Source: Rhodospirillales bacterium (GTDB taxonomy: Bacteria; Pseudomonadota; Alphaproteobacteria; Reyranellales; Reyranellaceae). Taken from it: 40,000 bases of DNA. The number at the start of each line of letters is the position of its first letter. Within the stretch, counting starts at the first letter, position 1. Below, one piece after another: positions 6,289-21,583 of the stretch. Under the pieces are notes generated by a model. That model was given only the letters and a program-made list of their open reading frames with translations. It ran no database searches and was not told the DNA's origin. The stretch is from assembly GCA_009377525.1 (NCBI GenBank), contig WHTW01000006.1, forward strand, positions 1 through 40,000, given 5' to 3'. The translations under genes and the position numbers were made by a program.

Positions 6289-6363
<75 letters not shown>

Positions 6364-6447
6364 CTCCAAAGTGCCCATTTATCAGGGGAATACAGGTTTC
6401 ATAGGCATCTTCGTCGCCGCGCTGGTACAAAGGAGAGGTACAAAGCG

Positions 6448-8163
6448 ATGGCGATCCTGTGCATGGCGCGACCGTGGAAGCATCCGAAGACTGGCGTCTA
6501 CTATTTCCGCCGGGTGATCCCCGAGGGACTGCGTCCGTTCGTTCCCGAGGGCGACACGGCCGCGCCCGAGCGGCGCCTAGCGAAGCACGAATACAAGCGC
6601 TCGCTCCACACGAAGGATGCACCCACGGCAAAGCGTCTCTATGCGGATGCCGCTGCGATTTGCGATGACTACTTCTCCTCACTGAGAGCCGCGAAGGAAC
6701 GAGCAGCCGCCACTGAGGTAGGAGGGCTCGCCAGCCAAGCGGCCGGCTCCAGGCACGCCACACCCGAGGCCTCGGCCACCGGGCACCCGACGACGTTCTC
6801 CCTCCGAGCGCTCGCAGCGGAGCTTGGTCAAGAGATCATCCAGCGCAACGCCGGGGCGCCGCCGGCTGCCGCATTCAAGAACAACCGAGCGATACCGCCG
6901 GGACCCTGGGGTACTCCGAGAGAACCTTGGGCCAGCCATCGATACGCCCTGGCGACCAGCCTTCGCGCGAAGATGCGGGCCAGTCAGCATGAGTACGTGA
7001 CCACACCTTCAAGGGAGTTCCTCGGGGCACGCGGCATTACTCTGTCGCCCGATGAACAGCAGTGGGAAGAGTTCTGCGAGCTTTCCTGCGAGGCGATCGA
7101 CGCGGCCCTAGAAACGCTCCAGCGACGCTACCGGCACGGTGACAACGACACTGCCACGAGCGACGCACCGTTGGTCCAGCGCTTCCCCGTAGGGATGCCT
7201 GAGAGCCGCCCGAGGGTTGCTATAGCGCCGCTAGGCGCGGCTATCACGGGCCTCATTGAGACGTGGGCGAAGGGGCGCGAAAACCCGAGACAACGAACAC
7301 GCGAGCGTTTCGCTCGAAGGCTTGAACAGTTCTCAGCCTTCCTCAAGCACGATGACGCGATGGCCGTCACAAGCAAAGACCTGAGACGTTGGCGTGACCA
7401 CCTTCGTAATGAGGGCCGCACGGCAAAGACTGTGAACGAGGATTGCGTTGCGGCGGTGACCACTGTCTTTCGGGCAGCATCGGCAGAGGAAGTTCTCCCG
7501 ACCTACCCCTTCCACGATTACAAGGCACTGAGAGAAGACAAAACGAAAGAGAACGCCCGCCGCCCCTACACCGAAGAGGAAGCCCGAAGGCTTCTCACTT
7601 GCGCTCGATTGCGCACGGACGCGCTACGCTGGCTGCCGTGGCTCATGGCCTATACCGGCGCGCGCATTGGCGAGGTTGCCCAGCTTCGCAAGGAAGACGT
7701 GAGAACCGAGCACGGCATTAAGGTCCTGCGGATCACGGGCGGCACTGAGAAGGGGCATGAGGTCAAGACCGGCTCGTCACGACGCGACGTACCGTTGCAC
7801 CGCGCGGTAATAGACGAAGGCTTCTTGAAGTACGTTGGCGGCGCGAAGGAGGGACCGCTCTTCTCCGACCTTCCGCCGGGCCGTCTCGGCAAGCGTGGGG
7901 ATGCGGCCTCCACTGAGTACCGCCGTTGGGCGCGCGGGGTGGTAGGCATAACGGACAAGCGGGCTGTGGCGCACTCTTGGCGTCACCGCATGGAAGACCA
8001 GCTACGCGAGATAGAGGCACCCGAGGAGGTAGCAGCGGCGATCACCGGCCGGACCCGCCAAGGGTCGCGGGCTGGATACGGCAAGGGACCGTCACTGGCG
8101 CTCCAGGCACGATGGCTGGCAAAGATACCGGCGGTGAAGCTCGGGGCGGACACCCGCACTTAG
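6448..8163 (+). CDS. int: Tyrosine-type site-specific integrase (571 aa)
   Basis: ATG at 6448 preceded by aggagagg; the track ORF start at 6319 lies inside the tRNA. N-terminus ARPWKHPKTGVYYFRRVIP is typical of alphaproteobacterial island integrases. Catalytic region: AYTGARIGEV...HSWRHRMEDQL...GYGKG (R..HxxR..Y). Confidence 0.9.
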   Translation: MAILCMARPWKHPKTGVYYFRRVIPEGLRPFVPEGDTAAPERRLAKHEYKRSLHTKDAPTAKRLYADAAAICDDYFSSLRAAKERAAATEVGGLASQAAGSRHATPEASATGHPTTFSLRALAAELGQEIIQRNAGAPPAAAFKNNRAIPPGPWGTPREPWASHRYALATSLRAKMRASQHEYVTTPSREFLGARGITLSPDEQQWEEFCELSCEAIDAALETLQRRYRHGDNDTATSDAPLVQRFPVGMPESRPRVAIAPLGAAITGLIETWAKGRENPRQRTRERFARRLEQFSAFLKHDDAMAVTSKDLRRWRDHLRNEGRTAKTVNEDCVAAVTTVFRAASAEEVLPTYPFHDYKALREDKTKENARRPYTEEEARRLLTCARLRTDALRWLPWLMAYTGARIGEVAQLRKEDVRTEHGIKVLRITGGTEKGHEVKTGSSRRDVPLHRAVIDEGFLKYVGGAKEGPLFSDLPPGRLGKRGDAASTEYRRWARGVVGITDKRAVAHSWRHRMEDQLREIEAPEEVAAAITGRTRQGSRAGYGKGPSLALQARWLAKIPAVKLGADTRT

Positions 8164-8172
8164 GCCCGAGCG

Positions 8173-8379
8173 GTGCACGATGCGTTCGGGACGACCCCGA
8201 CGAAGACCGCGAGGTTTGCCCAGATACTCCGCGAGGAGTTCGCCAAGATGTACGCCAGCGATCCATTTGAATGCTTGCGCGCGTCATTACGCTTCTGGGG
8301 CGTGACACTGCCCGAGGAGCCCGCCATGGGCACCCTGGACCCCGCCCAGATCGCCCACGCCGAATACCTCTTCGCGTAG
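8173..8379 (+). pseudogene. Relic of the C-terminus (motif C to end) of a second T7-type RNA polymerase
   Basis: VHDAFGTTPTKTARFAQILREEFAKMYA...EYLFA aligns with the end of the full-length RNAP in this island (VHDSFGTTPERAGDLAKVLRETFSEMYA...LYAFG) and with T7 RNAP IHDSFGT...FAFA. It begins 9 nt after the integrase stop, in the same frame. Confidence 0.7.
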
Positions 8380-8410
8380 CCCAATACATTGTAAAGGCTA
8401 TGCTTTCTCT

Positions 8411-8800
8411 CTGAGTATAACCATTGCGGCCCAAGCAACATCGGGACGGACACCGCCCCGCAAGGGAGCCCGCCATGTAACCCCATCAATCGGAGGTCAC
8501 GAATGCCCCATCTCACCATCCGCCGCTCGGTCGGCCAGATCACACTCACGGCCGCGCCTAGCCGCGCCTGTATCAGCGGACCGTCGTGAACCCCCGTTTG
8601 TCGCGATAACCCATTGGTGGCGCTGAGGGTTATTCGCTGAGTATAGGTAATGTGGGCCGGGCAACATCGGATTGACCCCCCTTGGCGGGGGCCAAAGCAG
8701 GGCTCAAGCCACTGCGTTTGCGATGCTTTACCTCTTTCGTGCCCATATGACGGACAGCCGCACCTAGCCGAGCACGAACGTCCCCCGTTCTCTTTTGTTT
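8411..8800 (+). repeat. Two diverged tandem copies (about 226-bp period) of a noncoding unit with conserved blocks
   Basis: CTGAGTATA at 8411 and 8637; GCAACATCGG at 8435 and 8661 (the same 24-nt offset in both copies); GCCGC(G/A)CCTAGCCG at 8551 and 8757; CCCCCGTT at 8591 and 8782. Confidence 0.6.
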
Positions 8801-8887
8801 TTGGACAGTGGGCCCCCGCCCCGCCGTCCGCACCTGTAGCAGTCCGCAACCCTGTCTCCTCTCTGTGGAGTTTCCAAACCAACTCAC

Positions 8888-9103
8888 ATGACAAATGATC
8901 TCATCTCTCTGGCCGACGCCGCCGCCGAGCTTCGCATTAGCACGAAGACCCTCGATAGGTGGCGACGTGCCGGCAAAGGCCCCGACTACCTTCGATCCGC
9001 AAGCGGCCACGTCCACTATAGCCGGCAGACCCTCGATACTTGGCGTGCACAGCAAGTGACCACCGAAAGCGTTCGCTACCTCTTGCTTGAGGGCGTTGCG
9101 TGA
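8888..9103 (+). CDS. AlpA/excisionase-like helix-turn-helix DNA-binding protein (71 aa)
   Basis: LISLADAAAELRISTKTLDRWRRAGKGPDY...HYSRQTLDTW has an HTH_17/MerR-type excisionase pattern. It is the first gene after the integrase module. Confidence 0.7.
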   Translation: MTNDLISLADAAAELRISTKTLDRWRRAGKGPDYLRSASGHVHYSRQTLDTWRAQQVTTESVRYLLLEGVA

Positions 9104-9576
9104 AAGCGCGCGAGGCGACATCGCCGCTCCAAGCCATTCGAGCCAAGTGTTTGGACTGTTCAATGGGCAGTCCCGCCGAGGTTCGCCGCTGCCATTTGAC
9201 CGACTGCGCACTGTGGCCGTTTCGCCTTGGCAAGGGGGCACCCATCTCCGAAGCCCAACGGGAAGCTCGCCGTGCGTCCGTCCGTAAAGCCGCCGCCAGC
9301 CACCTGAAGCCCCATACGGTACGGCGATTTGGAACAACGGACGAGACAGGTGGGGCTACCCCCCCGGTGAGACTGCGCTCTAAAAAGTCCCATACGGTAC
9401 GGGGGACACCGAGCGAAGCGCGGGCCGACGCTCTCGCCCGACGCCAAGCCGCAACCATCGTCGACAAGGGTATCCGCTATCGGAAGAAGCCTCTTACCTT
9501 TGAACAGGAGTACCACCTCATAATGCGGAAGCCGAGGACTGCCCACCCGAGCGGAGCGAGGGGCTCCCGTGGATGA
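9100..9576 (+). CDS. Cys4 zinc-ribbon protein common in mobile elements (158 aa; C-terminal half doubtful)
   Basis: GTG start overlaps the upstream stop (GTGA). IRAKCLDCSMGSPAEVRRCHLTDCALWPFRLGKG gives C-x2-C-x10-C-x4-C. The C-terminal half contains DNA-level repeats at 9311/9389 and 9546. Confidence 0.55.
   Translation: MKAREATSPLQAIRAKCLDCSMGSPAEVRRCHLTDCALWPFRLGKGAPISEAQREARRASVRKAAASHLKPHTVRRFGTTDETGGATPPVRLRSKKSHTVRGTPSEARADALARRQAATIVDKGIRYRKKPLTFEQEYHLIMRKPRTAHPSGARGSRG
9311..9402 (+). repeat. 14-bp perfect direct repeat CCCATACGGTACGG x2, 78 bp apart
   Basis: Copies at 9311-9324 and 9389-9402, with similar flanks (aagCcccatacggtacggCg and aagTcccatacggtacggGg). Confidence 0.8.
9546..9565 (+). 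repeat. 20-bp motif cccgagcggagcgaggggct (left member of a perfect inverted pair)
   Basis: Exact reverse complement of 19521-19540. Confidence 0.9.
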
Positions 9577-9778
9577 AGCCACGATGCAACGCATTCGGGA
9601 CAGCATTCAGCACGCCATCGACAACCGCACCTATTCCCCGCCGCAGCACCAGGAGCCCACTGACTGCTTCCGGGAAATCCTCGATATCGCACGAGACGCT
9701 CTTTGCACCTTCGGCTGTAGCCTCCGCGACCTAGCGGCGCTCATCGAGACGCACCTAGTCGCCGCGATCCTTGTATAG
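9569..9778 (+). CDS. Hypothetical protein (69 aa) with an N-terminal MDEAxxxRIRxSI module
   Basis: GTG start overlaps the previous gene by 8 nt. The N-terminus MDEATMQRIRDSI recurs twice at the start of the next gene. Confidence 0.4.
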   Translation: MDEATMQRIRDSIQHAIDNRTYSPPQHQEPTDCFREILDIARDALCTFGCSLRDLAALIETHLVAAILV

Positions 9779-9784
9779 AGCGAC

Positions 9785-12700
9785 ATGGACGAGGCACTTC
9801 TAAATCGTATTCGAGCCAGCATAGCCGGCGCTCCAGTCCCGCCAGCCACTTCGCCACCGACAGCCTCGCCCAAGGCCGGCGCTATGGACGAAGCTACGAT
9901 GGAAAGAATTCGAGCCAGCATCGAGCGTGGGCGTACCGTCCCACCTCGCCCCACGGATCAAACTGCAATCGCGAACCCGACACACGCGGGCCTTCCACAG
10001 TCTGAGCCTCACAGCGCCGACGCCGCGCCCGGCCCGAACCTTGCTGCAGCCGTACAGGGCAACCGGGACACCCTCGGGATGCTCGCCAACACGCTCCTAG
10101 GGGGCGCCCGAGACGCTCTCCAGGGCACCCTCGAAACAGTCCATAGCGCAGCCGGCCTCGCGGGTGACGTAGCGGAGAGCATGGGCACGCTGCCCGATAG
10201 CTTCCCGCGGCCTACCGCCGACAACGCGCCGAAGCTTCCCGAAGTCCCCCGTGCGGACGAGAGCACGAACGAAGGCGTCGCCATGAACGTCGCCCGAGAC
10301 CTGGAGCGCTTCGTGCTCGGCTTCGTGGGTGGTGGTGCGATCCTGAGAGGTGCGGGAGTGGCGACGAACACCCTTCGAGGAGCGGCCGGCGCTGGCTTCG
10401 TGGGAGACTTCGTGGTCACGGGAGCCAACGACAACCGCTTGGTCGACCTCTTCGAGAAGGTGCCAGCGCTACGGGGGCCGTTCCTTGAGTACATCTCGAC
10501 GGACGGTGATGAGGACCTCCTCAAGCACAAGCTTGGCGCGGCCGTAGAGGGCCTGTTCTTCGGGGGAGCTATCGACGGGCTCCAAAGGATCGCTGGCGTT
10601 ATCCGAAGGTCCATCAAGGCGGAGAAGACGGGCGGTGCTGAGGCGGCTGAAAGGGTGATCCAAGAGTCAGCGGAGGAGATGCAGGAGGCTGCCACGGAGA
10701 TCAATGCGTGGAGCGGCGCACCTAGCGAGGCTATCGACCCAGGTGCTCCCGTGGCGACGCACCCACCGGTCCGGCTGGACGAACGTGGGCAAATCGAGAT
10801 GTTCCCCGAGGTGGTCCGCCGTGAGGAGGCGATCGAGGATATCCAGCTTCAAATCAAGGGCGACCGCTACCTCGACCCTGAGACAGGCAAAGAGAAGCTA
10901 CTTCCCATCTCCAATCGAGCGCGAGAGGAGTTGACCAGTGTTGCCGCCGATCCTAACGCGCCCTTGCACATCGACAAGCTCACCCCGGAGACCCGAGAAG
11001 AACTACTCCGTGCCCTTGCGTCGGACAATGAAGCGGCTCGCTTCTTCAATCCGAAGACTGTTCGCGGCAAGACGTTCGCGCTGGACGATGCGCGGCGGGC
11101 CGACTTCGACGCGGCTATGGAGCGCTCGCTCTCGATCCCGTATGCCACGCTGAAAGCCGAGAACCCCGGCGCGGCTATCGAGGACACCCTCAGCACCTTC
11201 CTGAACTACCGCTACATGGAGAGCGCCGATAGCGTGAAGGTGACGCTGGACGAGATGGCCACGGCTATGGAGCCTCAGGTTGCAAAGCACCTCGGCGGCT
11301 TTCCCCAGACGCACGCGCAAGTCCAGGAGACGGCAGGATGGCTCGGCATGAAGCCCGAAGTCCTCCTTGCATCACTGTCCCAGCAAGCACGCGCTGCCGA
11401 ACACATGCCCGCTCTTCTCGTGGCAGGTAAGACGTGGATACAAAGCCTCGCCCGCGACATTCACCAGATTAGCAAGGCGATCGATAGCGGCATGGCGACG
11501 GACACCGCGAAGATAGAGCTTGTGCGCCGGCAGGACATCCTTGCCGATCTCATCTCGACGTTGAAGTCCGTCCAGACAGCGAGCGCGCGCACGACAGCGG
11601 CGGGCAGGATCAGGACGAGCGACGCGCTCACCCATGAGGAAATGGGAACGCTGCTTCGCGAGGTGGGCGAAGACAACTTCAAGCTCATCAGCCGCAAGCT
11701 CGCGCTTACCGAGGGCAACCCGCAGGCGGTCATCTCCATCCTTGAGCCAACGTTCGGGCAGAAGTCGTGGGGCGTGGCGAACGAGTTCTGGATCAACGCG
11801 ATCCTCAGTGGCCCGGCAACGCACGTTATCAATCTCACGACGGGCTTGCGTAACACTGCCCTCTTCCCGCTCTTCAAGATCACTGGCGGCCTGCTTACGG
11901 GCGACATGAAGTCGGTCCGCATCGGCATCGGCCAGTACGCCGGCCTTCGTGGTGCGGTCTTCAACAGCTTCGAGATGGCCAAGCGGTCCCTCCTCACGGA
12001 GAACGCCTACGTTGATGCGAGCTTCCACCAGATCGAGCGCGAGCGGCTCTGGATCAAGGCGGACACCTTCAGCACGGACCCCAGCGGCACGCTTGGGCAA
12101 GGCATCGAGGCGCTCGGCACGGCCATTCGTATGCCGTCGCGGTTCCTCACGGCTGAGGATGAGTTTTTGAAGCAGTTGACCTATCGTGCTTCGGTGACGG
12201 CGAGGGCTCACGAGGAAGCTATTGAGCGGGGATTGTCGGACAACCGGACGGTCTCCTACTTCGTGGACGGCGAGAAGAAGATGATATCCGAGGTGGATGA
12301 GTACGTCCGTGATCGGATGCAAGAAGCGTTTCACCCCAGGATGGAACACGGGCTAGACCAAGCGGCCCTTCGGGATGCTCGCCGTGCAACGTTCACGAGC
12401 CCGCTCAAGACAGCGACTTGGGGCAACATGACCAGTCTTGGCGAGATAGCCCAGCAAGCCGCAGCAAGGGCACCGTGGATACGACACACGATCCTGCCGT
12501 TCACGAGGGTGCCCACGAACATCTTCCGCGAGATGATTTTGGAGAGCCCACTGGCTCCGATCCGGAAGCAGTTCTGGACCGACCTGAGGGCCGGCGGAGA
12601 AGCACGGTCCGACGCTATCGGGCGCGTGGCGCTCGGCACAACATTCTGGACTGGCGCGGCAATGCTCGCGAGCGAAGGGATCATTACCGGCAAGGGTCCT

Positions 12701-13711
12701 ACTGATCCGAAGCTACAGAAGCAGTGGCGAGCGGCGGGCAATCAGCCGTATTCAATCCGGTTCGCGAGCATGGGGCCGGACGGCAAGGACCTGTTCATCT
12801 CCTACAACAGGTTCGACCCGACAGCCGGTGTGCTCGCGCTGGCGGCCGACTTTGCGTACATCGCCGCTCACGTAGACGAGCGCACGCAAGATGCGCTGGC
12901 CATGACGCTCACGCTCACGCTGGCGAACAATCTCAACAGCAGAACTTATCTTCGTAGCCTGACGGAGTTGACTTCGATCCTCGGGTCTAATGATCGCGCC
13001 GGCCCGCATCTAGTGGAGCGCTGGTTGAATTCGCGGGCTGCTTCCTACGTACCCCGGATCGTGTCGGCGGTTAATCCAGATGATACGTTGAGGGATGCCC
13101 GTGACGCGCTGGAAGCGATCCAGGCGAGGATACCGGGATTGAGTGACGGACTACCGCCTCGGCGAGACACCTTCGGCGAGCCCATCGTGCCGTCCGTTGG
13201 CTGGCCGTACAGCCAGGTCAATCCCTTTGCAATAGCGGTGGGCAAGGATGGAGCGGCGCGGCGCGAGCTAGGTTACTGGGCTGAGAGCGAAACCCGCAGT
13301 CAATTTGAGATGCCCTCGCCGAAGATCGATGGACTTATCGATCTACGCGACGCCAAGAACTCACAGACTGGCCAGAGCGGCTATGACCGCTGGCTCGAAA
13401 TCCTGACTGAGCCAAGGTTCGGAGGAAAGACCGCAGAGGAGCGGATTGACGATATCGTGGCAAGCGATGGCTACAGGAATTTGAAGGAGCGTGGCGTTGA
13501 AAGCCCGATCTATCGCCGGCACCCCGCCGTTGAATTCTTGAGAGAGCAACTTGGATCACACTACGGCATTGCCCGCGAACTCATGCTTGCGGAAGTCGGC
13601 TTCGAAGACCTCCGCGCCGCGTTGCAAATCTATGAGGCGAGCAAGCGCGCCGTCCCTGTGGGCGCCGTAGCACCGTCCAACCCGGCGCTTGATCAGTTGC
13701 TAAAGCGGTAG
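9785..13711 (+). CDS. Large orphan protein (1308 aa), function unknown; possibly a phage internal/ejected virion-type protein
   Basis: Uninterrupted 3.9-kb ORF with non-shadow composition. The N-terminus has two MDEAxxxRIRASI modules and an Ala/Pro-rich linker. I found no NTPase, polymerase or lytic transglycosylase motif. Confidence 0.85.
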   Translation: MDEALLNRIRASIAGAPVPPATSPPTASPKAGAMDEATMERIRASIERGRTVPPRPTDQTAIANPTHAGLPQSEPHSADAAPGPNLAAAVQGNRDTLGMLANTLLGGARDALQGTLETVHSAAGLAGDVAESMGTLPDSFPRPTADNAPKLPEVPRADESTNEGVAMNVARDLERFVLGFVGGGAILRGAGVATNTLRGAAGAGFVGDFVVTGANDNRLVDLFEKVPALRGPFLEYISTDGDEDLLKHKLGAAVEGLFFGGAIDGLQRIAGVIRRSIKAEKTGGAEAAERVIQESAEEMQEAATEINAWSGAPSEAIDPGAPVATHPPVRLDERGQIEMFPEVVRREEAIEDIQLQIKGDRYLDPETGKEKLLPISNRAREELTSVAADPNAPLHIDKLTPETREELLRALASDNEAARFFNPKTVRGKTFALDDARRADFDAAMERSLSIPYATLKAENPGAAIEDTLSTFLNYRYMESADSVKVTLDEMATAMEPQVAKHLGGFPQTHAQVQETAGWLGMKPEVLLASLSQQARAAEHMPALLVAGKTWIQSLARDIHQISKAIDSGMATDTAKIELVRRQDILADLISTLKSVQTASARTTAAGRIRTSDALTHEEMGTLLREVGEDNFKLISRKLALTEGNPQAVISILEPTFGQKSWGVANEFWINAILSGPATHVINLTTGLRNTALFPLFKITGGLLTGDMKSVRIGIGQYAGLRGAVFNSFEMAKRSLLTENAYVDASFHQIERERLWIKADTFSTDPSGTLGQGIEALGTAIRMPSRFLTAEDEFLKQLTYRASVTARAHEEAIERGLSDNRTVSYFVDGEKKMISEVDEYVRDRMQEAFHPRMEHGLDQAALRDARRATFTSPLKTATWGNMTSLGEIAQQAAARAPWIRHTILPFTRVPTNIFREMILESPLAPIRKQFWTDLRAGGEARSDAIGRVALGTTFWTGAAMLASEGIITGKGPTDPKLQKQWRAAGNQPYSIRFASMGPDGKDLFISYNRFDPTAGVLALAADFAYIAAHVDERTQDALAMTLTLTLANNLNSRTYLRSLTELTSILGSNDRAGPHLVERWLNSRAASYVPRIVSAVNPDDTLRDARDALEAIQARIPGLSDGLPPRRDTFGEPIVPSVGWPYSQVNPFAIAVGKDGAARRELGYWAESETRSQFEMPSPKIDGLIDLRDAKNSQTGQSGYDRWLEILTEPRFGGKTAEERIDDIVASDGYRNLKERGVESPIYRRHPAVEFLREQLGSHYGIARELMLAEVGFEDLRAALQIYEASKRAVPVGAVAPSNPALDQLLKR

Positions 13712-13714
13712 CCC

Positions 13715-14410: not shown

Positions 14411-14464
14411 CCGAGCGAAGCGAGCTACTCACCGCCGCCAACGCGGAAGCCGAGCGAAGCGAGG
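14411..14464 (+). repeat. Two direct copies of the CCGAGCGAAGCGAG(G) island motif
   Basis: Copies at 14411-14424 and 14450-14464. The same motif occurs at 19326-19340 and, as a partial copy, at 9409-9420. The G-variant occurs at 9546, 16390 and 19521. Confidence 0.8.
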
Positions 14465-14612
14465 CCTTCGCCGCCCAACAAGGTTCCACCGGGGCTCCCT
14501 CAGCCGCGCCCCGTTGACGGCGACTTCCATTCAAGCCCCGTTCGTCGCTCTTGGGATCGCCTCCGCATAGCCGCCGTTCCATCACCCAACAAAAAGGGAT
14601 AACCCAACCTCC

Positions 14613-15104: not shown

Positions 15105-15111
15105 GCGCGCG

Positions 15112-15411
15112 ATGACGGCTAAGACACGCGTGCTCGACGTTGAGGCCCGCATCGCGGTACTTGAGGTACTTCTAGAGCAGTCCCCAGCCTCTCCCCCGCT
15201 GGCTCCCGGCGGCCCCGTGAAGATGCGCGTGAGCAACTTGGAAGTTCGCCTGGAGGCACTGGAGGCGGCTGTCGGTGGTGGCTATGAGCCGCCGTTCGAT
15301 CCGAGCGCGACGTTACCGCTTGCATGGTGGTCGCCGTCGCCGTGGAAGAGAAGGTTGGAGAAGCTGGAGGCGCGCTTGGAGGCACTGGAGACGTTCGTAG
15401 CAGCCCTTTGA
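15112..15411 (+). CDS. Coiled-coil protein, SPWKR paralog A (99 aa)
   Basis: Internal ATG at 15112. Heptad-like repeats VEARIAVLE / LEVRLEALE / LEARLEALE and the motif WWSPSPWKRRLE. Paralogous to the next gene. Confidence 0.55.
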   Translation: MTAKTRVLDVEARIAVLEVLLEQSPASPPLAPGGPVKMRVSNLEVRLEALEAAVGGGYEPPFDPSATLPLAWWSPSPWKRRLEKLEARLEALETFVAAL

Positions 15412-15412
15412 G

Positions 15413-15712
15413 TTGACCGTGGCTCAGTATCGAGGACTGCCCCCAAAGGCGCGAGTGGAAGCCGTTGAGGCGCGCGTGGCGGCCTTGGAAAGCGGTGGCG
15501 GTGGGGCCTCCGATCTCTCCGTGATAGCCGCGCCCCGCTTCGCTATGGTGCACTTGTCAAACTTGGAGACGCGCATGAGGGCGCTTGAGATCACGCAAGA
15601 GGGATATAGCGCCGCCCGGACGTGGCCATCGTGGTCCCCGTGGAAGCGTCTAGAGGCACTTGAGACGCGAGTGGCAGCCTTGGAGAGCGCGAGCCCTAGC
15701 ACGTCGCCGTAG
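15413..15712 (+). CDS. Coiled-coil protein, SPWKR paralog B (99 aa)
   Basis: Starts 2 nt after paralog A (TTG, or GTG a few codons in). VEARVAALE / LETRMRALE / LETRVAALE and WSPWKRLE. Same length as paralog A. Confidence 0.55.
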   Translation: MTVAQYRGLPPKARVEAVEARVAALESGGGGASDLSVIAAPRFAMVHLSNLETRMRALEITQEGYSAARTWPSWSPWKRLEALETRVAALESASPSTSP

Positions 15713-15856
15713 TAGTTAGCCCAATCCAGAAGAAGGTGGACGCAGTCAGGGCCGAGCCCCTGTTGCGCCCGCCTTTTTCTCGCTCGCCCAAGCCTCCCTT
15801 ACTCAGCGCTCCCACACACTCCCTGTGATAACTTTCGAAAAGGGGGACCATTACCG

Positions 15857-16351
15857 ATGCCGATAGGTGCCAGTCTTATTGCCAAAGCCGAAGTCCGAAC
15901 GCTTCTTTGTGTTGATGACAAATGCCTTCACGCGTGGCGCTCGCGTCATGCCGGTCCTGCTCGGGAAGGGGACGGATACGACCTCGCCCAAGTTGAGGAA
16001 GTGAGAGCACAAATGCTCATACTCGGCAGCTATGGGCTCCAGGTGAAGAATGCCGAGCGGCCGTTGGGCTCGATAACCTTCTCACGAGAAGACGACACTG
16101 AGACACTAGGCGCGGCCCAAGTTAAGAAACTGTTGGCCATCGATCAAAGCATCTTGTCTCACTGGCTTGCCGCTCTCCCATTTCCCATTGGGCCAATACC
16201 GAAGAGGACGAAGATCAAAGGCCCGTGGAAGTACCGGAAGAACCAAGTGCTAGAAGTGCGGGCTGCGCTTCTCATTCTAGGTGATAGGTACAAGTTGGGC
16301 CTAACCGACACTCCTCATTTCCTGACACACGCGGGACCGACTTGGCAGTAA
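15857..16351 (+). CDS. Hypothetical protein with two internally duplicated HTH-like modules (164 aa)
   Basis: Module 1: KAEVRTLLCVDDKCLHAWRSR...VEEVRAQMLILG. Module 2: AAQVKKLLAIDQSILSHWLAAL...VLEVRAALLILG. This is the most AT-rich coding stretch of the island. Confidence 0.55.
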   Translation: MPIGASLIAKAEVRTLLCVDDKCLHAWRSRHAGPAREGDGYDLAQVEEVRAQMLILGSYGLQVKNAERPLGSITFSREDDTETLGAAQVKKLLAIDQSILSHWLAALPFPIGPIPKRTKIKGPWKYRKNQVLEVRAALLILGDRYKLGLTDTPHFLTHAGPTWQ

Positions 16352-18978
16352 TCCCGGTGGACGCCGACTTGATAGCGCCGCTAGAGGAGCCCTCGCTCCG
16401 CTCGGGCGCGGCTATGCGCGAGCAGGAGAACTTGGAGCGCGAAGCGTTTGAAACGGGAAGGCGGCGGCTCAATGCATTCCTAAGGAAAGCCCGAGAGACA
16501 GGCACGGAGAGCTTCACAGCGCCGGGACAGTGGATTGTCCGGCAAGTGATCGGCCCCATGGCGGATATGCTGTCGCAAGAGTTTGTGACCAGCAATAGCG
16601 CCCGTGCCACGAGAGGCGGAGCGATGATCCACGCCATCAAGGACATGGACCCGCTCTTCCTTTGCGCCGTTGCGGCCCGCACGGCTCTAAACGGTGCGTG
16701 GTCTCGGGACAACGGAGGAAAGCTCTCGCTAACGCTGGTGTCCGCCAAGATCGGCGCGGCCATCGAAGACGAGTGGCGGTGGCACGAGTGGCGAAAGCTC
16801 GACCCAAAGCAAGCGCGATGGGCACAAGACGTTGTGAACGAAGGTCGTAGTGCGGGCGGAGCCCGTTACAAGCGAGCAGCGGCGCGCAAGGTGGGCGGCT
16901 TGTTCCTCCCGGAAGAGCTATTGGCTCCGTGGCCGTCCGACAAGCAAGTAGCGCTCGGGTTGCGCTTCGTGGACTACATGGTTAGCCCGTCAGTCGGCCT
17001 TTTCGAGGTGACTAAAATGTTGTCCGGACGCCGTGGACCCTCAAAGGCCAAGCTCGCACTTAAGCTCAGCCCAATCGCAGTCCAGCGAGCCGACGAAGTC
17101 GTAGACCTCTTCGCCACTTCTCAGGCGCTCACGTGGCCGCTCATCGTTCCGCCAAAGCCCTGGACGGCGCCTACTGGAGGCGGATTTTGGTTCCGCGAAA
17201 GGACAGCCACCGACATTTGCCCGGAAGGTCTCAAGCCGTTCCCGCTGGTCCGATGGGCAAGCCCCGAGCAACGCAAGGCGCTCGATCGCGCTGATCTCTC
17301 CACCGTGTACGCGGGTCTCAACGCGGTCCAAGAGACTCCCTGGAGGATCAACAAGCGCGTCCTTGGGGTTTGGTCTGCGATGCTCGACGGCGGCTTCGGC
17401 CCAACAGACGATATCGTCGAGTGGGATAACGAAGAGCCGCCCGAGCGCGTCCCCGATGACGAGTGGGAAGACATGTCGGACGAAGACCGCCTCGAACACC
17501 GGCACGAAATATCAGAAGTCTTTGGACGAAACCGCAAGGCCGTCTCAAAGCGCGTGCGTCAGCATCGCCTCAAGCGTGTGGTTGATCGCTTCGCCAAGTA
17601 TCCGGCGATCTACTTTGCTTACAACTGTGACAGACGAGGCCGCGTCTATACATCGTCTTCGGATATCTCGCCTCAAGGGAGCCGTCTAGAGAAGGGACTG
17701 CTGGAGTTTGCGGTCGGGGATGAGCTTTCGGATACAGGCGAGGCCCCCTCGCCGATCCGCTCGGGCGTGTACTGGCTCAAGGTGGTAGTGGCGAACTACT
17801 ACGGCTTCGACAAGGTGAGCTTCGATGACCGGGCGAAGTGGACAGACGCAAACAAAGAGATGATCCTCTCGGTAGCAGCCCGTCCTCTTGATGACCAAAG
17901 ATGGTGGAGCGCGAGCGAGAAAACGAGATGGCAGTTCCTTGCCGCGTGCTTTGCCTATCAGGAGTGGAAGGAAGAGACGACGGCCGGCCGGCGGTACGTC
18001 TGCCACTTGCCGGTGATGCTCGACGGCACTTGCAATGGGCTCCAGCATTGGGCGGCATTATTGCGTGACGAGAAGGTTGGGCAGTTCGTCAATCTTGTGC
18101 CCGGTGACAAGCCCATGGACCTCTACGGGAGGGTTGCCAGTAGGGCGAGGGAGGAGATCGAAAGAGCGGTCGAGAGACGGCAACAGTGGGCGCTCGAATG
18201 CCAAGCGCTCGGGATCGACCGCAACTTCGCCAAGCCGGTCGTCATGGGCTTCCCTTACGGGCGGACCCGGTGGTCGATCTACGAGGAGATTGAGAAGGCG
18301 TTGCGGCGGAAGATAGAGAAGAGCGACGGCTCAAGTCCAAACTGGTGGACCGACAAAGAGGCTCGCTCGGGTGTCGTCAAGTTCCTCGTGGAGACGCTTT
18401 GGACGGCCACGATTGCGGAGACTGAGAAGCCCGATGCGGGGCGCAAGTATCTACAAGCGGTTGCCCAAGAGTGGAAGAAGGCCGCACCGGATACGCCGTT
18501 GGCTTGGATGAGCCCGAGCGGCTTCCCCGTGGTCCTGGCGCGGCGTGACCAAGGGCCAATCGAAGGGCGCGTCCGGGAGAAGCTCTTGGGAAAGCTTGTC
18601 ATGCCCAGATTGTGGGCCGGCAAGGGTGCGCTCTACTGGTCGAAGCTGATCTCAGCCATTGCACCCGGCTTCATTCATAGCTTGGACGGAGCCCACTTGG
18701 TCATCGCGCTTGGGGCGGCGGCCCGTTCGGAGATCAATCAGCTAGCGTGTGTGCACGATAGTTTTGGGACAACCCCGGAACGGGCTGGTGATTTGGCGAA
18801 GGTGCTCCGGGAGACGTTCTCGGAGATGTACGCCGAGGGTGATCCCATAGCCGCCCTTGAGGAAGCCCTCAGGCAAGCCGGCGGGCACCCGAACGCAGCA
18901 CCGATCCCGCACGGTCGACCGGAACCGGGGGGCCTTGACGTGGGCGCCATGCGCGGTTCGCTCTACGCGTTCGGGTAA
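16342..18978 (+). CDS. T7-like single-subunit DNA-dependent RNA polymerase (about 873-878 aa; start uncertain: TTG 16342, GTG 16357 or ATG 16414)
   Basis: Motif A [22 protein letters not shown] matches T7 [34 protein letters not shown] matches T7 WFPYNMDWRGRVY. Motif B region is [10 protein letters not shown] and motif C is VHDSFGT. The C-terminus is LYAFG. The length is close to the 883 aa of T7 RNAP. Confidence 0.93.
   Translation: [878 protein letters not shown]
16390..16406 (-). repeat. Copy of the CCCGAGCGGAGCGAGGG island motif (inverted orientation) inside the RNAP 5' end
   Basis: ccctcgctccgctcggg is the reverse complement of the 9546 motif, one C shorter. Confidence 0.75.
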
Positions 18979-18992
18979 AGGGCGGTTGCGGA

Positions 18993-19060
18993 CCCGTACA
19001 GACGATCCAGGGCTTCGCGTGGGGAAAAACCCTCCGGGAAACCTAAATCGTCTGTACGGG
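18993..19060 (+). repeat. 14-bp perfect inverted repeat with a 40-nt spacer just downstream of the RNAP stop
   Basis: cccgtacagacgat (18993-19006) and atcgtctgtacggg (19047-19060). No U-run follows. Confidence 0.7.
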
Positions 19061-19208
19061 CTCCCTAGCCTAGCTAGCGTCGATCAGGGCACTTGACAGG
19101 CCGGCGGGAAGTCGATAACGGCCGCACCACCGACTGTGGCCCGCTTGCCATATTTAGTTAGCCATCTACCTTGCGGAGAGAGATCACTCAAGGACTTCCC
19201 CGAGAGCT

Positions 19209-19560
19209 TAATGAGGAAGCCCACCGGAGGTGAAGGGCTCATGGCTAATGAGGAGCCCACGTAGATAGATTATCAATGAAACTATCCTACCTCTTCCCGA
19301 GGCCATCAGGCCGAAGGGCTCTCTTCCGAGCGAAGCGAGGCTACTACCCTAGAGGGATCATGAGGGAAGCCCACTGACAGTGGATGTCCTCATGGCGTCC
19401 TAGAGGTAAGGGAAGATAGCCCCTCGGCCCGAAGGCCTCGGGGAAGGGAAGGATAGCCCACCTATAAAGAACCAATGGAAGGATAGCCCTAGAGCCGGTT
19501 CAGGAGCTAGCTCAAGAGACAGCCCCTCGCTCCGCTCGGGGATCAGGATTGATAGCCCAT
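19209..19560 (+). repeat. Array of 7 same-orientation short degenerate repeats (two subfamilies ending in GCCC)
   Basis: T(A/C)ATGAGG(G)A(A)GCCCAC at 19209, 19246 and 19358. GGA(A/T)(G/T)(G)ATAGCCC at 19410, 19446, 19476 and 19546. Spacing is irregular (30-112 bp). Confidence 0.75.
19521..19540 (-). repeat. 20-bp motif (right member of the perfect inverted pair)
   Basis: agcccctcgctccgctcggg is the reverse complement of 9546-9565. Confidence 0.9.
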
Positions 19561-19562
19561 GG

Positions 19563-19838
19563 ATGATCCACCGTCGACGAAGCTCTCGACGAAACCCCCG
19601 TTGTTCCCGAGACCTCCACCGAGGCGGAGCCGATGGGCTACCGAGACGTTCCCAGGGACTTCGCCCGGAGGCCCCCTGGGCCATGGCTGGTGATGGCACC
19701 ACTCGACGCAAACATCTGGGTACCTACGACACTCCCGAAGAAGCCGGAGCGGTCGCCAAAGCAGCCCGCGTGGAGCTTGCAGGCGTGTTCCTGCCCGGCC
19801 CCACTCGATACCGCGCGAAGATGGCGTCCGGCCGATGA
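19563..19838 (+). pseudogene. Relic of an AP2-domain (homing endonuclease-type) gene
   Basis: ...RPEAPWAMAGDGTTRRKHLGTYDTPEEAGAVAKAARVELAGVF parallels GRMKYLGTYDTPEAASLAVQEKSKELRGAF of the intact HNH-AP2 gene. No HNH part is present and the upstream frame is junk. Confidence 0.5.
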
Positions 19839-20150
19839 TTTGGGCTGGGGAAAAATTCCAGTTGGGAATATACGCAAACCCCTAAACGTATCACCTCGGC
19901 GCGCGCGACCCCCCTCTACCCGGCCCGGCCGCCCCTGGCTGGGGCTGGGCACCGCTTCTACGTGTGGGCTCCAGCGAAGCGTTTACGTGCCGCCGCCCAC
20001 GGGAAATCCTTCGCCGCGCCGCGCCCACACCAAGCGGAGCCGAAGGGGTCATCCGTCACTCAATCGGTCACCTCTCTGCCCTAACTCACTGAGCGTGCTC
20101 GGCGCACATGGGATTGCTCGTCCCATAGCGCCGCTTGGGCGCGGCTATCT

Positions 20151-20249
20151 GGGCAGAAAACCCCATCGAACTGCCCTCGGGAAACCCCAATGAATTCAAC
20201 GGCACACTCCCTCGGATTTGCGTGGGCAGAAACCAATTGATTGTTGCCC
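20151..20249 (+). promoter_or_regulatory. Candidate recombinase-binding (res-like) dyads upstream of the serine recombinase
   Basis: GGGCAGAAAA-N10-CTGCCC (20151-20176) and GGGCAGAAAC-CAATTG-ATTGTTGCCC (20224-20249; imperfect dyad centred on CAATTG), ending 43 nt before the ATG. Confidence 0.35.
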
Positions 20250-20291
20250 AGCCGTGGCGTACAAGTGGGCACCTACCAAGGAGCACACACG

Positions 20292-20915
20292 ATGACCACC
20301 AGCACCACCCCGAGGAAGCCCAAGAGAGCCGCCCTGTACCTCCGCGTATCGACCGACCGGCAGACCGTCGAGAACCAGCGGCAAGCCCTGGAGGCCATCG
20401 CAGGCCATCGTGGATGGGATATCGTCGCCACCTACGGTGACAGAGGAGTTAGCGGCGCGAAGGGCCGAAAGGATCGCCCCGAGTTTGACCGGATGCTTAG
20501 CGAAGCGGGACGCGGCAAGTTCGATGTAGTGATGGCCTTCGCCCTGGACCGCATCGGCCGCTCCCTCGGGGACTTGCTTCACACGATCCGCCATCTTGAA
20601 GAGTGCAAGGTCGACCTGTTCATAGACAAACAGATGCTCGATACGACAACGCCCCAAGGGAAGCTCTTGTATGCGGTGACCGGCGCGTTCGCCGAGTTTG
20701 AGCGCGACATGATCGTCCAACGCGTCAACGCTGGGCTAGACCGTGCGCGCACCGCTGGCGTCACCTTGGGCCGCCCGAGGATCGCTGAGAAGACCGAGGC
20801 AGCCATCCGCAAGGCCATCACCAAGGGTGACAAGGGCAAGCACAAGCTCGCCGCTCAGTTCGGCGTGGGCTCGGGGACGGTGGCGCGCATCAAGGCGGAG
20901 ATGGGCCGCACCTAA
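20292..20915 (+). CDS. Serine recombinase, resolvase/invertase family (207 aa)
   Basis: ATG at 20292 preceded by aaggag. AALYLRVSTDRQ (catalytic Ser), VVMAFALDRIGRS, FAEFERDMIVQRVNAGL and a C-terminal HTH (LAAQFGVGSGTVARI). Confidence 0.9.
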   Translation: MTTSTTPRKPKRAALYLRVSTDRQTVENQRQALEAIAGHRGWDIVATYGDRGVSGAKGRKDRPEFDRMLSEAGRGKFDVVMAFALDRIGRSLGDLLHTIRHLEECKVDLFIDKQMLDTTTPQGKLLYAVTGAFAEFERDMIVQRVNAGLDRARTAGVTLGRPRIAEKTEAAIRKAITKGDKGKHKLAAQFGVGSGTVARIKAEMGRT

Positions 20916-21007
20916 ACGCCGTGTACGTGTGAGCACGTAAGAGAAAATGGATATCTGTCTTTTTCAGCAGAGCCATCACAGCCTACCCGAGAGAACCTAA
21001 TAGGGTT

Positions 21008-21087
21008 GACGCATCGCCTTTGCAATGCATCGCGGGGCCATCTCCCGATGCATCACTTACTTGCGCTCCTCTCGATGCATTGCAAAG
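21008..21087. promoter_or_regulatory. Cluster of GATGCAT-type palindromic sites including a 15-bp perfect inverted repeat
   Basis: ctttgcaatgcatcg (21018-21032) and cgatgcattgcaaag (21073-21087), plus cgatgcatc (21046-21054) and gacgcatcg (21008-21016). Confidence 0.45.
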
Positions 21088-21209
21088 ACGATGTTCACAC
21101 TGCAACCGGGCAATACTTTTGATCGTTTGAACGCTTCACCGGAAATCCCTCATGTTGCGCAGACGCGGTGCGAGGGGCTCGCTCGCCCGTATTTCATAGG
21201 AGGAACGAT

Positions 21210-21371
21210 ATGGGCAAGGTCAGTATGCGAACAGTCTTCTATTCGCAGCGTCTTGAGTTCGGCATCTTTGCGTACCGGGGGCTCGCGCCGGTCCAGCCGT
21301 GGGTCGCCAAAGACGGTCCCGGGAACTACTGGCTTGGCCGCTTCAATGTTCTATGGGGCCGCCGTCGCTAG
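21210..21371 (+). CDS. Small hypothetical protein (53 aa)
   Basis: Strong SD taggagga 6-7 nt upstream of ATG 21210. An intrinsic terminator follows about 30 nt downstream. Sequence: MGKVSMRTVFYSQRLEFGIFAYRGLAPVQPWVAKDGPGNYWLGRFNVLWGRRR. Confidence 0.45.
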   Translation: MGKVSMRTVFYSQRLEFGIFAYRGLAPVQPWVAKDGPGNYWLGRFNVLWGRRR

Positions 21372-21402
21372 AAACGGGGGGCGCGCCAGTGGTCCAGTGA
21401 GC

Positions 21403-21434
21403 GGGGTTGCTTCGGCGGCCCCGTTTCCGTTTGG
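21403..21434 (+). terminator. Intrinsic terminator (UUCG-loop hairpin plus T-rich tail)
   Basis: ggggttgc-ttcg-gcggcccc followed by gtttccgttt. Confidence 0.6.
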
Positions 21435-21560
21435 GGTTAGGTACCCGCTCACCCGAAAGGCGGGCACTTCCAAGAGGTCCTCCAGGGTGGTACAAGGGAG
21501 TACAAGCGCGGCTTACCTAAGTCCTTGATTTATAGGCACTTGGGCATGGTCCACCGGCAA

Positions 21561-21583
21561 TTCAATCCTGTCCGGCAGCACCA
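21561..21583 (+). repeat. attR: 23-bp direct repeat (displaced tRNA-Thr 3' end)
   Basis: ttcaatcctgtccggcagcacca is identical to 6341-6363. Confidence 0.85.

Follow-up and report, generated by a model that had tools for sequence, protein, structure and literature searches.

A 40,000-nucleotide stretch of contig WHTW01000006.1 (assembly GCA_009377525.1), from a Rhodospirillales bacterium of the Reyranellaceae, carries an island inserted at a tRNA-Thr gene. The whole stretch, at its full length, is termed the window, and positions are those of the window. The island is 15.2 kb long and all its confidently assigned genes are on the + strand. It encodes a tyrosine integrase, a T7-type single-subunit RNA polymerase (RNAP), an ejection protein of the T7 gp16 type and a serine recombinase. 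Upstream of the recombinase gene is a short non-coding block that is also found at the genome junction of T7-like phages. The features on which the argument is built are the following.

6289–6363, + strand: tRNA-Thr(GGT), the integration target (ARAGORN, the only tRNA in the window; Rfam RF00005, 72.8 bits).
6341–6363, + strand: attL, the left attachment (att) repeat, which is the 3′ 23 nt of tRNA-Thr (exact repeat).
6451–8163, + strand: tyrosine integrase with an N-terminal DUF6538 domain (Pfam DUF6538, 2.5e-13; phrog_1, 6e-26).
8888–9103, + strand: HTH_17 (helix-turn-helix, HTH) DNA-binding protein, excisionase/AlpA-like (PF12728, 1.7e-7; phrog_66 'excisionase and transcriptional regulator', 9e-9).
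9884–13711, + strand (open reading frame listed from 9785, 1308 aa): T7 gp16-type internal virion (ejectosome) protein (phrog_6651; tblastn).
15857–16351, + strand: double HTH_17-like protein; its gene lies directly upstream of the RNAP gene and overlaps it.
16357–18978, + strand: full-length single-subunit (T7-type) RNAP (PF00940, 3.9e-79; RPOL_N; phrog_414, 4e-182 over residues 24–877).
18989–19066, + strand: long stable hairpin immediately past the stop codon of the RNAP gene (z = −6.4 relative to shuffles; −49.2 kcal/mol).
19200–19560, + strand: cluster of degenerate short repeats, about eight units (GAGGAAGCCCAC / GGAAGGATAGCCCA / CCTAGAGG).
19852–19925, + strand: block of ∼80 bp with phage-junction homology (..GGGAATATAC..GACCCCCCTCTACCC), together with a collinear segment at 20065–20129.
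20289–20915, + strand (open reading frame listed from 20241): small serine recombinase of the resolvase / Pin-like invertase type (PF00239, 1.8e-41).
21561–21583, + strand: attR, an exact copy of the tRNA-Thr 3′ end (exact repeat).

The sequence TTCAATCCTGTCCGGCAGCACCA (23 bp) is found exactly twice in the window, at 6341–6363 and 21561–21583, and is the longest repeat between the island ends; it stretches to 29 nt at 93% identity (repeat family D10). A third att copy is absent inside the island, and an arrangement of two tandem elements is therefore rejected. The tRNA was the sole match in an Rfam scan. The island is foreign by composition, as it has 33 of the 39 CTAG sites of the window, against 6 in the other 25 kb, and a GC content below that of the flanks. 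Seven CTAG sites fall in the bin 19001–20000, six of these within the repeat region at 19065–19510, and phage junctions are CTAG-rich too. The integrase looks intact: the catalytic R/K/HxxR/Y residues are conserved, and the Phage_integrase and SAM-like domains score just under the Pfam cut-offs (26.9 vs 27.1 and 22.0 vs 22.3 bits). It is 54–64% identical to the integrases of three related elements described below (L001, L007 and L021).

The 1308-aa open reading frame (ORF) matches phrog_6651 'internal virion protein' (E 1.8e-49) and, by tblastn, 'internal virion protein D' of Autographiviridae pelagiphages and roseophages. In roseophage CRP-804, internal virion protein D follows genes of gp14 and gp15 size and precedes a gene in tail-fibre position (annotated hypothetical). 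This gene position identifies the ORF as the equivalent of T7 gp16, which is of similar length. The nearest relative is P0068 of a T7-like phage contig (L020), with 79–80% amino acid identity and 79.8% nucleotide identity over 3.6 kb; the gp16 of element L021 is 70% identical. The island gene displays no stop codons over its full length and dN/dS values of 0.16–0.22 relative to phage copies, and appears to be intact. A first-pass annotation, made from the letters and their ORFs alone, had reported no recognisable virion genes in the island. This was wrong, since phrog_6651, tblastn and the phage L020 match all identify a gp16-type virion protein. It had also considered that profile searches might assign the unknown ORFs to standard capsid or replication functions; gp16 proved to be a virion hit, and no capsid or replication families were matched.

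Of the CRP-804 structural set, only internal virion protein D hits the window by tblastn. Portal, scaffold, major capsid, tail tube A and B, fibre, and the small and large terminase were not found in the island by Pfam, PHROG or CRP-804 tblastn searches. DNA polymerase and primase-helicase have no Pfam or PHROG match among the island ORFs, and tblastn with CRP-804 DNA polymerase, primase, single-strand binding protein and exonuclease found nothing in the window. gp14 and gp15 are also absent from the window island; sister elements have them.

The RNAP keeps the T7 catalytic residues D537, R627, K631, Y639, H811 and D812 and looks intact. It is identical to protein GEV13_03170 of the Rhodospirillales metagenome-assembled genome (MAG), encoded on a contig of 100.6 kb. 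Its nearest relatives, from elements L001, L003, L004 and L007 and a prophage of Enhydrobacter, are 42–47% identical; the closest RNAPs in a small-element setting span 40–47%. Exact-protein look-ups of the window RNAP and of the 1308-aa ORF gave no match, because of start-codon differences. The double-HTH protein clusters by BLAST with the HTH_17 protein and with a gene of L001 (5169–5651) that also precedes an RNAP gene. The hairpin that follows the RNAP is a putative terminator or RNA-processing structure. An equivalent hairpin is found in L001 (8337–8422, z = −4.8), and L004 has a hairpin plus T-run at this place. The hairpin arms (CCGTACAG...) are partly kept in L001, though the window and L001 RNAPs are only 47% identical.

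In T7, the RNAP transcribes the genome and aids its entry, takes part in concatemer processing and primes the origin that lies directly downstream of gene 1. The hairpin after the RNAP gene and the repeat region beyond it are at the place of the T7 R1.1 site, the phi1.1 promoters and the primary origin. The repeat unit GGAAGGATAGCCCA (∼14 nt, up to 3 mismatches) matches the window 10 times where 2.8 matches are expected, with 4 of the 10 lying within 19410–19559. Tandem Repeats Finder detected no tandem repeat between RNAP and recombinase. Thus the 'repeat array' noted in the first-pass annotation is not tandem, and what stands is a cluster of degenerate ∼14-nt units. A hairpin at 19420–19444 lies inside the cluster, and the hairpin block is common to L001 and L021. 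Short-repeat arrays of the same type are found at the junctions of phages L102, L020 and L105 and in element L004; the cluster is the counterpart of the arrays that flank the phage junction. The phage arrays are on both sides of the junction and resemble the repeat arrays beside the T7 terminal repetition.

An nhmmer profile of the ∼80-bp block detects one copy each in the window, in every related element and in phages L020, L102 and L105, and zero copies in ∼95 other loci (∼1 Mb, mostly T7-like contigs). In the elements, the block is always shortly (∼100–350 bp) upstream of the recombinase gene. In the three phages, it falls in non-coding DNA, with the late genes of the terminase side before it and the first early genes after it. 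The segment 20065–20129 matches L102 collinearly by blastn. The block is kept among elements whose proteins are only 40–55% identical, which implies that a cis site is under selection. Scanned for as a DNA pattern, the block gave nothing in IMG/VR, and in metagenomes only the contig of L003 and a match in L104 that was rejected as chance, being T-rich, unrelated sequence. The junction DNA is shared with no cultured phage; the nearest cultured capsids and terminases are only 37–47% identical. The motif ATCTGT has a single coding-strand copy in the 19–24-kb loci of L102 (at 22256) and L105 (at 13589), 271–295 bp after the block and in an AT-rich patch. It recalls the T7 class II pause signal at the concatemer junction. 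This idea fits phages L102 and L105 only and was dropped for the elements, where the motif is absent.

The recombinase is 78% identical to that of L001 and has ∼45 metagenome clusters at 80% identity or above. Close homologues are labelled 'DNA invertase Pin-like' in the sources. Two recombinase subfamilies are present among the elements, and the stretch from the block to the gene contains conserved motifs that are particular to each subfamily.

Small elements with a common plan are found in five further lineages (L001, L003, L004, L005/L007 and L021), making six with the window, and all these relatives come from metagenomes or MAGs. The plan consists of a DUF6538 integrase, HTH_17, one to three ejectosome genes (gp14/15/16), usually an RNAP, and the junction block followed by a Pin-like recombinase. 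The gene orders are as follows.

L001/L002: integrase (64% identical to that of the window), HNH, 223-aa protein, HTH_17, gp14 (PF24072), double HTH, RNAP, recombinase (78%).
L007 (a Reyranella MAG), with L005 and L003: tRNA-Ser(GGA), integrase, variable cargo, RNAP, HTH_17, gp14, 644-aa protein, 94-aa protein, 226-aa protein, ∼700 bp of non-coding DNA, recombinase.
L004: a rearranged variant with its own RNAP relic upstream of HTH_17.
L021 (a 15.5-kb contig found via gp16, which starts just after tRNA-Ser): integrase, HNH, 223-aa protein, NmeDI-like restriction enzyme, HTH_17, gp14, 89-aa protein, 646-aa protein, gp16 (70%), 246-aa protein, recombinase; RNAP is absent.

HTH_17, an ejectosome gene and the block upstream of the recombinase recur in L001, L003, L004, L005/L007 and L021. 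The loci of L001, L007 and L021 contain the integrase, and that of L005 a partial 3′ end; those of L003 and L004 stop short of the gene. Among the relatives, only L007 has the tRNA inside the locus. All four family features are present in the window: a tRNA-associated DUF6538 integrase, HTH_17, a gene for an ejectosome protein, and the block directly upstream of the serine recombinase. The single-subunit RNAP, present in five of the six lineages and absent from L021, is frequent but not universal. HTH_17 is in all six, and the window copy is 46–52% identical to its counterparts. PF24072 (T7_gp14) scores above the Pfam cut-off in relatives. The 644–653-aa proteins of the elements are 45–69% identical to the protein in gp15 position of the phages; the 644-aa protein of L007 is absent in L003. 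Capsid, portal, terminase and DNA polymerase genes were not found in the seen parts of any related element. A circularity test on the ∼15-kb contigs detected no terminal overlaps. Scans of IMG/VR with gp16 and a gp15 alignment, of JGI metagenomes with gp15 and of genome contigs with a single protein gave no match.

The slot after the integrase is a defence-gene hotspot like those of the P4 and phage-inducible chromosomal island (PICI) satellites. L005 has a patatin and a CD-NTase-like gene (CBASS-like) as cargo, and L003, L007 and L021 an NmeDI-like (NmeDI_C) restriction enzyme. L005 (180–2200) and L007 (4750–7460) differ in the cargo after the integrase and are otherwise 95–100% identical. 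Past the recombinase, minus-strand cargo is found in L001 (10959–12494), L003 (13880–15324) and L004 (17378–18070), comprising Schlafen/AlbA_2, Trypsin_2 plus AAA_13, and SRAP genes. Beyond that cargo is a conserved + strand set of a 131–158-aa regulator, a 162–167-aa protein, an SNase and a 74–79-aa protein. A homologue of the regulator is encoded among the early genes of phage L105. The window island has neither the minus-strand cargo nor the + strand set.

Minimal remnants of such elements (L108–L110) consist of tRNA-Ser, an inverted integrase fragment, the block and the recombinase only. L108/L109 (8419–10612) and L110 are at tRNA-Ser(GGA) between host genes (lepA, Transgly_assoc), with a block at nhmmer E 8e-8 and a recombinase 84–85% identical to that of the window. 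A 583-nt 'tmRNA*' reported by ARAGORN at the L108-type remnant is implausible and probably a false positive.

Phages with related modules were found as contigs. L020, 40.6 kb in length, is the contig of a T7-like phage and encodes portal, scaffold, Gp10A-like capsid, tube, nozzle, gp14, a 651-aa protein in gp15 position, gp16 (P0068), fibre and terminase. L102 presents the same picture and L105 is a third such phage. The early genes that follow the L105 junction are accompanied by a tyrosine integrase and by a regulator with a relative among the elements; this early-region integrase shows that these phages are temperate. gp16 and the junction are all that the island shares with this phage lineage, and the two are not collinear. 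HTH_17, a Pin-like recombinase beside the junction and a DUF6538-type integrase were not seen in the phage parts covered, and no recombinase gene is found in the 1.7–5.7 kb after the block of the three phages. When L020 and L102 were searched by repeats for a phage-promoter consensus, the repeat families that came up were at chance level only.

A comparison of element genes with one another and with phage genes reveals two classes.

Integrase: L021 vs L007, 81%; window vs L001, 64%.
Recombinase: within L003/L004/L007/L021, 74–83%; window vs L001, 78%; the two subfamilies mutually, 30–35%.
gp14 / gp15: L021 vs L007, 51% / 55% (L007 lacks gp16).
gp14 / gp15 / gp16: L021 vs phage L020, 63% / 69% / 74%.
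gp16: window vs phage L020, 80%; window vs element L021, 70%.
RNAP: L007 vs window, L001 and L004, 44–56% (window 44%); vs L003 of its own sub-lineage, 84%; vs the Enhydrobacter prophage, 65%.

Backbone genes are more alike between elements than are the phage-type modules, and a module is often nearer to a phage copy than to the copy of another element. A persistent backbone has thus repeatedly taken up or refreshed phage modules, which is not what uniform vertical decay predicts.

The remaining features of the island are the following.

8173–8379, + strand: relic of a single-subunit RNAP C-terminus, 68 aa, starting 10 nt after the integrase stop codon (PF00940, 6.7e-7; phrog_414, 2e-12).
8408–8800, + strand: non-coding leader before HTH_17.
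9100–9576, + strand: protein of 158 aa with a Cys4 zinc ribbon at its N-terminus (Pfam, PHROG and PADLOC gave no match).
9569–9883, + strand: 69-aa ORF and a 33-codon extension of the gp16 ORF, both beginning with the gp16 N-terminal motif V/MDEA..RIR.SI.
13715–14218, + strand: HNH-AP2 homing-endonuclease-like protein (PF13392, 5.9e-7; phrog_99, 2e-31; PADLOC HEase).
14288–15712, + strand: small ORFs of 104 aa and 163 aa and two coiled-coil 'LEALE' proteins.
19563–19838, + strand: relic of an HNH-AP2 gene, AP2 part only (clusters by BLAST with 13715–14218 and with L004 2836–3381; codon-position GC not coding-like).
20150–20240, + strand: TGGGCAGAAAAC twice and a CAATTGATT motif, common to L001; by position, a putative recombinase-binding or promoter region.
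21012–21093: inverted repeat I4 (26 nt, 88% complementary, 30-nt loop) between the recombinase gene and attR, which could be an integrase arm site or a terminator.

Most gene calls of the first-pass annotation are borne out. The tRNA-Thr and its perfect 23-bp repeats were recovered by ARAGORN, Rfam and exact-repeat searches, and the chain of + strand ORFs is as listed there. The integrase beside the tRNA (DUF6538 plus Phage_integrase, catalytic positions kept), the AlpA-like HTH, now placed in HTH_17 at 8888–9103, the HNH-AP2 gene at 13715–14218 and the serine recombinase at 20289–20915 (PF00239) all stand. So do the intact-looking full-length RNAP, which phrog_414 covers over its whole length with catalytic residues kept, the RNAP relic after the integrase (PF00940, phrog_414) and the AP2 relic, which is identified by its BLAST clustering with 13715–14218.

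The RNAP relic is 62–63% identical to the RNAP C-termini of L003, L005 and L007, in which the RNAP is followed by HTH_17. A similar C-terminal relic lies upstream of HTH_17 in L004 (1710–2042), and both the window and L004 have a full RNAP elsewhere. As the window relic is nearer to the RNAPs of L003/L005/L007, this suggests that the RNAP–HTH_17 order is ancestral and that RNAP genes have since been replaced. The gp16 5′ stretch (repeat D11, ∼14 nt) is found three times, at 9593–9606, 9809–9822 and 9908–9921. With the 5′ end triplicated, the 69-aa ORF and the 33-codon extension are likely recombination scars; they look like leftovers of earlier gp16 replacements. The window copy is perhaps a somewhat eroded member of the family, lacking gp14 and gp15 and displaying three gene relics.

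Taken with its anatomy, homologies, relatives, cis block and mosaic pattern, the island is best read as belonging to a so far undescribed family of tRNA-integrating elements of small size (∼15 kb and up). These would be derived from temperate T7-like (Autographiviridae-type) phages, would exchange genes with them and would most likely be their satellites; the probability of this reading is put at about 0.5. The elements keep items that are genome-specific in T7 biology, i.e. RNAP, ejection proteins and the genome-end region, and lack those that a helper could supply, i.e. DNA polymerase, capsid, tail and terminase. It is this pattern that points to satellites. A more detailed proposal is advanced tentatively. 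The islands may be the first described satellites of T7-like podophages, with a set of genes that would have no precedent: their own gp14/15/16 and RNAP, a copy of the helper junction for helper replication and packaging, a Pin-like recombinase that circularises injected linear DNA, and module swapping with helpers.

A possible life cycle can be outlined. The element would sit integrated at tRNA-Thr until a related T7-like phage replicates in the cell, when integrase and HTH_17 would excise it. The junction copy might be the cis site by which helper replication and packaging act on element DNA; in T7, plasmids with an origin and the concatemer junction are reportedly packaged. The element's own RNAP and cognate promoters would provide transcription independent of the helper; as in T7, they may also serve to prime replication close to the RNAP gene and to draw the DNA into a new cell. 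The confident genes all read one way from the junction, which fits an RNAP-driven transcription or entry step. The ejectosome protein of the element would be built into the particle. After injection, the recombinase might act on sites beside the junction such that the DNA is circularised or resolved, and the integrase would then insert it at the tRNA.

Known systems resemble the island in part. With the T7-like phages and prophages (HTVC019P-type pelagiphages, roseophages CRP-804/114, cyanophage P-SSP7; here L020, L102, L105 and Enhydrobacter L008/L022) it shares a single-subunit RNAP with all catalytic residues, the junction block and repeat arrays, tRNA integration by a tyrosine integrase and one-directional genes. 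Its gp16-type protein, and the gp14/gp15-type proteins of its relatives, are 50–80% identical to phage genes. Unlike these phages, it lacks DNA polymerase, primase-helicase, portal, scaffold, capsid, tube/nozzle, fibre, lysis and terminase genes and is ∼15 kb in length rather than ∼40 kb. It has in addition HTH_17, the Pin-like recombinase beside the junction and the DUF6538-type integrase, none of them seen in the phage parts covered.

PICIs, including the SaPIs (Staphylococcus aureus pathogenicity islands), are of the same size class (∼10–15 kb), are flanked by att sites and have an integrase followed by a small HTH regulator; variable accessory and defence cargo is found in the relatives of the island. 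However, Pfam, PHROGs and PADLOC recognised no Rep/primase plus ori module in the island, nor terS, ppi, cpmAB, rcm or HNH plus cos, the HNH proteins here being of homing-endonuclease type. In addition, the putative helper of the island is a T7-like podophage. To our knowledge, PICIs carry neither RNAP nor ejection proteins, unlike the island. P4-like satellites are similar in having an integrase and an AlpA-like regulator, in requiring helper structural genes (as would the island) and in their defence hotspots, but the island lacks primase alpha, Sid, Psu, Delta and P2-like helper cos families. The PICMIs (phage-inducible chromosomal minimalist islands) have an int-alpA-prim core and are inserted next to fis; they are packaged as concatemers, with no capsid remodelling (PMC10803314). 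Neither RNAP nor an ejectosome gene appears in the text that describes them (PMC10803314). The island, in contrast, has no primase and is at tRNA-Thr rather than at fis.

Two further comparisons concern the cis region. In laboratory T7 transducing plasmids, a T7 origin together with the concatemer junction is reportedly enough for packaging (Chung and Hinkle 1990). The island similarly joins a phage-type RNAP gene and the adjacent repeat/hairpin region, placed as the T7 primary origin is, with a copy of the phage junction. It differs in being natural and integrative, and the elements lack the AT-rich junction centre with ATCTGT. P1 Cre/lox and the Gin and Cin systems of Mu and P1 are recombinases encoded next to their own site in phage genomes. 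The island too has a small site-specific recombinase gene beside a conserved cis region at a genome-end junction, and by analogy it is plausible that the enzyme cyclises or resolves DNA after injection. Unlike Cre, it is a serine (Pin/resolvase-type) and not a tyrosine recombinase, for which any lox-like site or invertible segment in the island is putative. Judged by gene content, the island appears not to belong with complete T7-like prophages, PICIs/SaPIs, P4-like satellites or PICMIs. It is probably a phage-derived, helper-dependent integrative element.

Several points weigh against the satellite reading. Ejectosome gene sets vary (gp16 only in the window, gp14 only in L001), which would be odd if these genes were essential. 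No replication initiator, primase, small terminase or capsid-size gene was recognised by Pfam, PHROG or PADLOC. The window copy has relics (RNAP C-terminus, AP2, gp16 5′ copies), and remnants reduced to block and recombinase exist (L108–L110), so that decay is common. The elements lack the AT-rich phage junction centre that holds the sole ATCTGT in L102 and L105, such that the cis site may be incomplete for packaging. A length of 15.2 kb fits poorly into a 40-kb T7-type head. Furthermore, morphogenesis genes can strictly be called absent only from the window island and the seen parts of relatives, which mostly stop short of the right-hand end, and the phage comparison excludes the left halves of the candidate helper phages.

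Many of these points are also those expected of an inert mosaic, and this is the strongest alternative, although on balance it is less likely than the satellite reading. Deletions, and recombination between tandem or successive temperate T7-like prophages at a tRNA, would have left an integrase, gp16, RNAP and junction, now immobile and with genes that are intact merely because they are young. The three relics within the island, the more decayed L108–L110, the inconsistent ejectosome sets and the lack of recognised replication and packaging genes all agree with such a history. So do a gp16 that is 80% identical to a bona fide phage gene, the derivation of gp16 and the junction region from a temperate T7-like phage lineage, and a gene order in L007-type elements that is that of a permuted T7-like prophage minus the DNA-metabolism and morphogenesis blocks. 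Yet the same reduced plan is found in at least six lineages and at two different tRNAs with protein identities of 40–80%, and HTH_17, the DUF6538 integrase and the recombinase beside the block, backbone genes that the phages were not seen to have, are better kept than the phage modules. Conservation of the non-coding block spans deep divergence. Both att repeats match perfectly, and the reading frames of int, gp16 (3.8 kb, dN/dS 0.16–0.22) and RNAP (2.6 kb) are intact. In addition, L005 and L007 are near-identical and yet differ in cargo. A single simple deletion is at odds with the lack of collinearity, only gp16 and the junction being in common with the phage.

The first-pass annotation had weighed a heavily deleted prophage against a PICI-like satellite. 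From the former, the scars and the phage lineage of gp16 and junction stand, and collinearity does not; from the latter, the recurrent backbone in several lineages stands, and PICI-like membership does not, as Rep/primase and packaging-redirection genes were not found. It had also envisaged close relatives that all carry a full, collinear 40-kb prophage. The relatives are reduced in the parts seen, and the phage shares only gp16 and the junction.

Could the islands be domesticated phage-derived defence or exclusion islands? In that case gp14/15/16-type proteins or a foreign RNAP would disturb incoming T7-like phages, for example by ejectosome or core poisoning or by mis-transcription; host or element would retain them on that account, and particle transfer would play no part. 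The ejectosome genes are indeed closely related to those of co-occurring phages, neighbouring slots hold CBASS-like, NmeDI-like restriction enzyme, Schlafen/AlbA and AAA_13 genes, and functions of this kind are common in known satellites and prophages. But PADLOC matches among the island proteins are limited to the homing endonuclease, and a defence role leaves unexplained the junction block by the recombinase and the integrity of integrase and att sites. A defence role is improbable as the full explanation, and it is compatible with either a satellite or a remnant rather than exclusive of them.

Least probable is that the block is not a replication or packaging site but the target or crossover site of the serine recombinase, used for recombination with phage genomes (integration, gene capture) or for inverting a segment: its constant place ∼100–350 bp upstream of the recombinase gene, the motifs particular to each recombinase subfamily there, the 'DNA invertase Pin-like' homologues, the inverted integrase fragment beside block and recombinase in L108 and the visible exchange of modules with phages are suggestive, but three phages have the block with no recombinase gene in the following 1.7–5.7 kb, and the block is common to both subfamilies (30–35% identical) while their own motifs are outside it.

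Satellites are known for siphophages, myophages and a few others, and none of T7-like podophages was found in the searchable literature. Nor did full-text searches combining satellites with single-subunit RNAP, Autographiviridae, ejectosome or internal virion proteins yield anything comparable. If the satellite reading is correct, the T7-type coupling of transcription, genome entry, replication priming and packaging would demand a toolkit other than Rep, TerS and capsid-size genes, and an element that keeps just an RNAP, ejection proteins and a genome-end cis region would display that toolkit. Which of the T7 functions are genome-specific could then be tested, and the elements would represent an overlooked class of mobile island in soil Alphaproteobacteria, defence cargo included. 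If instead the islands are inert, a recurrent and unusual pattern of prophage reduction is still documented, as is ongoing gene flow between islands and uncultured temperate T7-like phages, and a set of divergent, apparently intact single-subunit RNAPs is gained.

A cultured relative of the phages is present in Enhydrobacter aerosaccus ATCC 27094 (L008 9974–22361 / L022), where the RNAP gene is followed by endonuclease I, primase and DNA polymerase. This is an apparently full T7-like prophage, represented in IMG/VR by a 42.9-kb uncultivated viral genome, IMGVR_UViG_2582581318_000001, and its RNAP shares 65–66% identity with the RNAPs of L003 and L007. The prophage might be used as a helper or model in experiments. 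The prophage RNAP gene adjoins host genes on its left (a DAO oxidoreductase and an AMP-binding enzyme).

The leader before HTH_17 contains a 37-nt repeat (family D7) twice, at 8408–8444 and 8634–8670, ending in ..GCAACATCGG, and a terminator-like hairpin plus T-run at 8776–8800. The latter comes from a sigma-70 and terminator scan of the island that was overall not above shuffles. A related motif, CCAAGCAACATC, and a hairpin plus T-run are found between RNAP and HTH_17 in L003 and L007. The N-terminal ∼45 aa of the zinc-ribbon protein represent a domain that is widespread (4499 clusters at E ≤ 1e-3), uncharacterised and not covered by any Pfam model. The protein was considered as a divergent gp14 and rejected, as a likeness to gp14 is not detectable. 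The HNH-AP2 protein, the sole PADLOC match among the island proteins, is 48% identical to a protein of L004.

The small ORFs at 14288–15712 are putative genes, with no Pfam, PHROG or PADLOC family matches other than sub-threshold coiled-coil ones. An AlphaFold2 model of the 163-aa protein has a pLDDT of 50 and is unusable for a fold search. Codon-position GC is coding-like at 14613–15104 and not coding-like at 8650–8898, 19633–20193 and 21025–21528. Upstream of the tRNA, a 755-aa ORF at 3966–6233 has no Pfam match and odd codon-position GC (GC1 0.79, GC3 0.63); the real gene there may be on the opposite strand, e.g. 5031–6134 (−). In a more distant locus, L107 (16876–20541), a gp13-like protein and a T7_gp14 protein (PF24072) accompany a DUF6538 integrase (28% identical, on the opposite strand). 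The recombinase found 7 kb off is of the window type (84–89% identical by different measures) and has no block. The association of DUF6538 integrases with T7 ejectosome genes may thus be broad.

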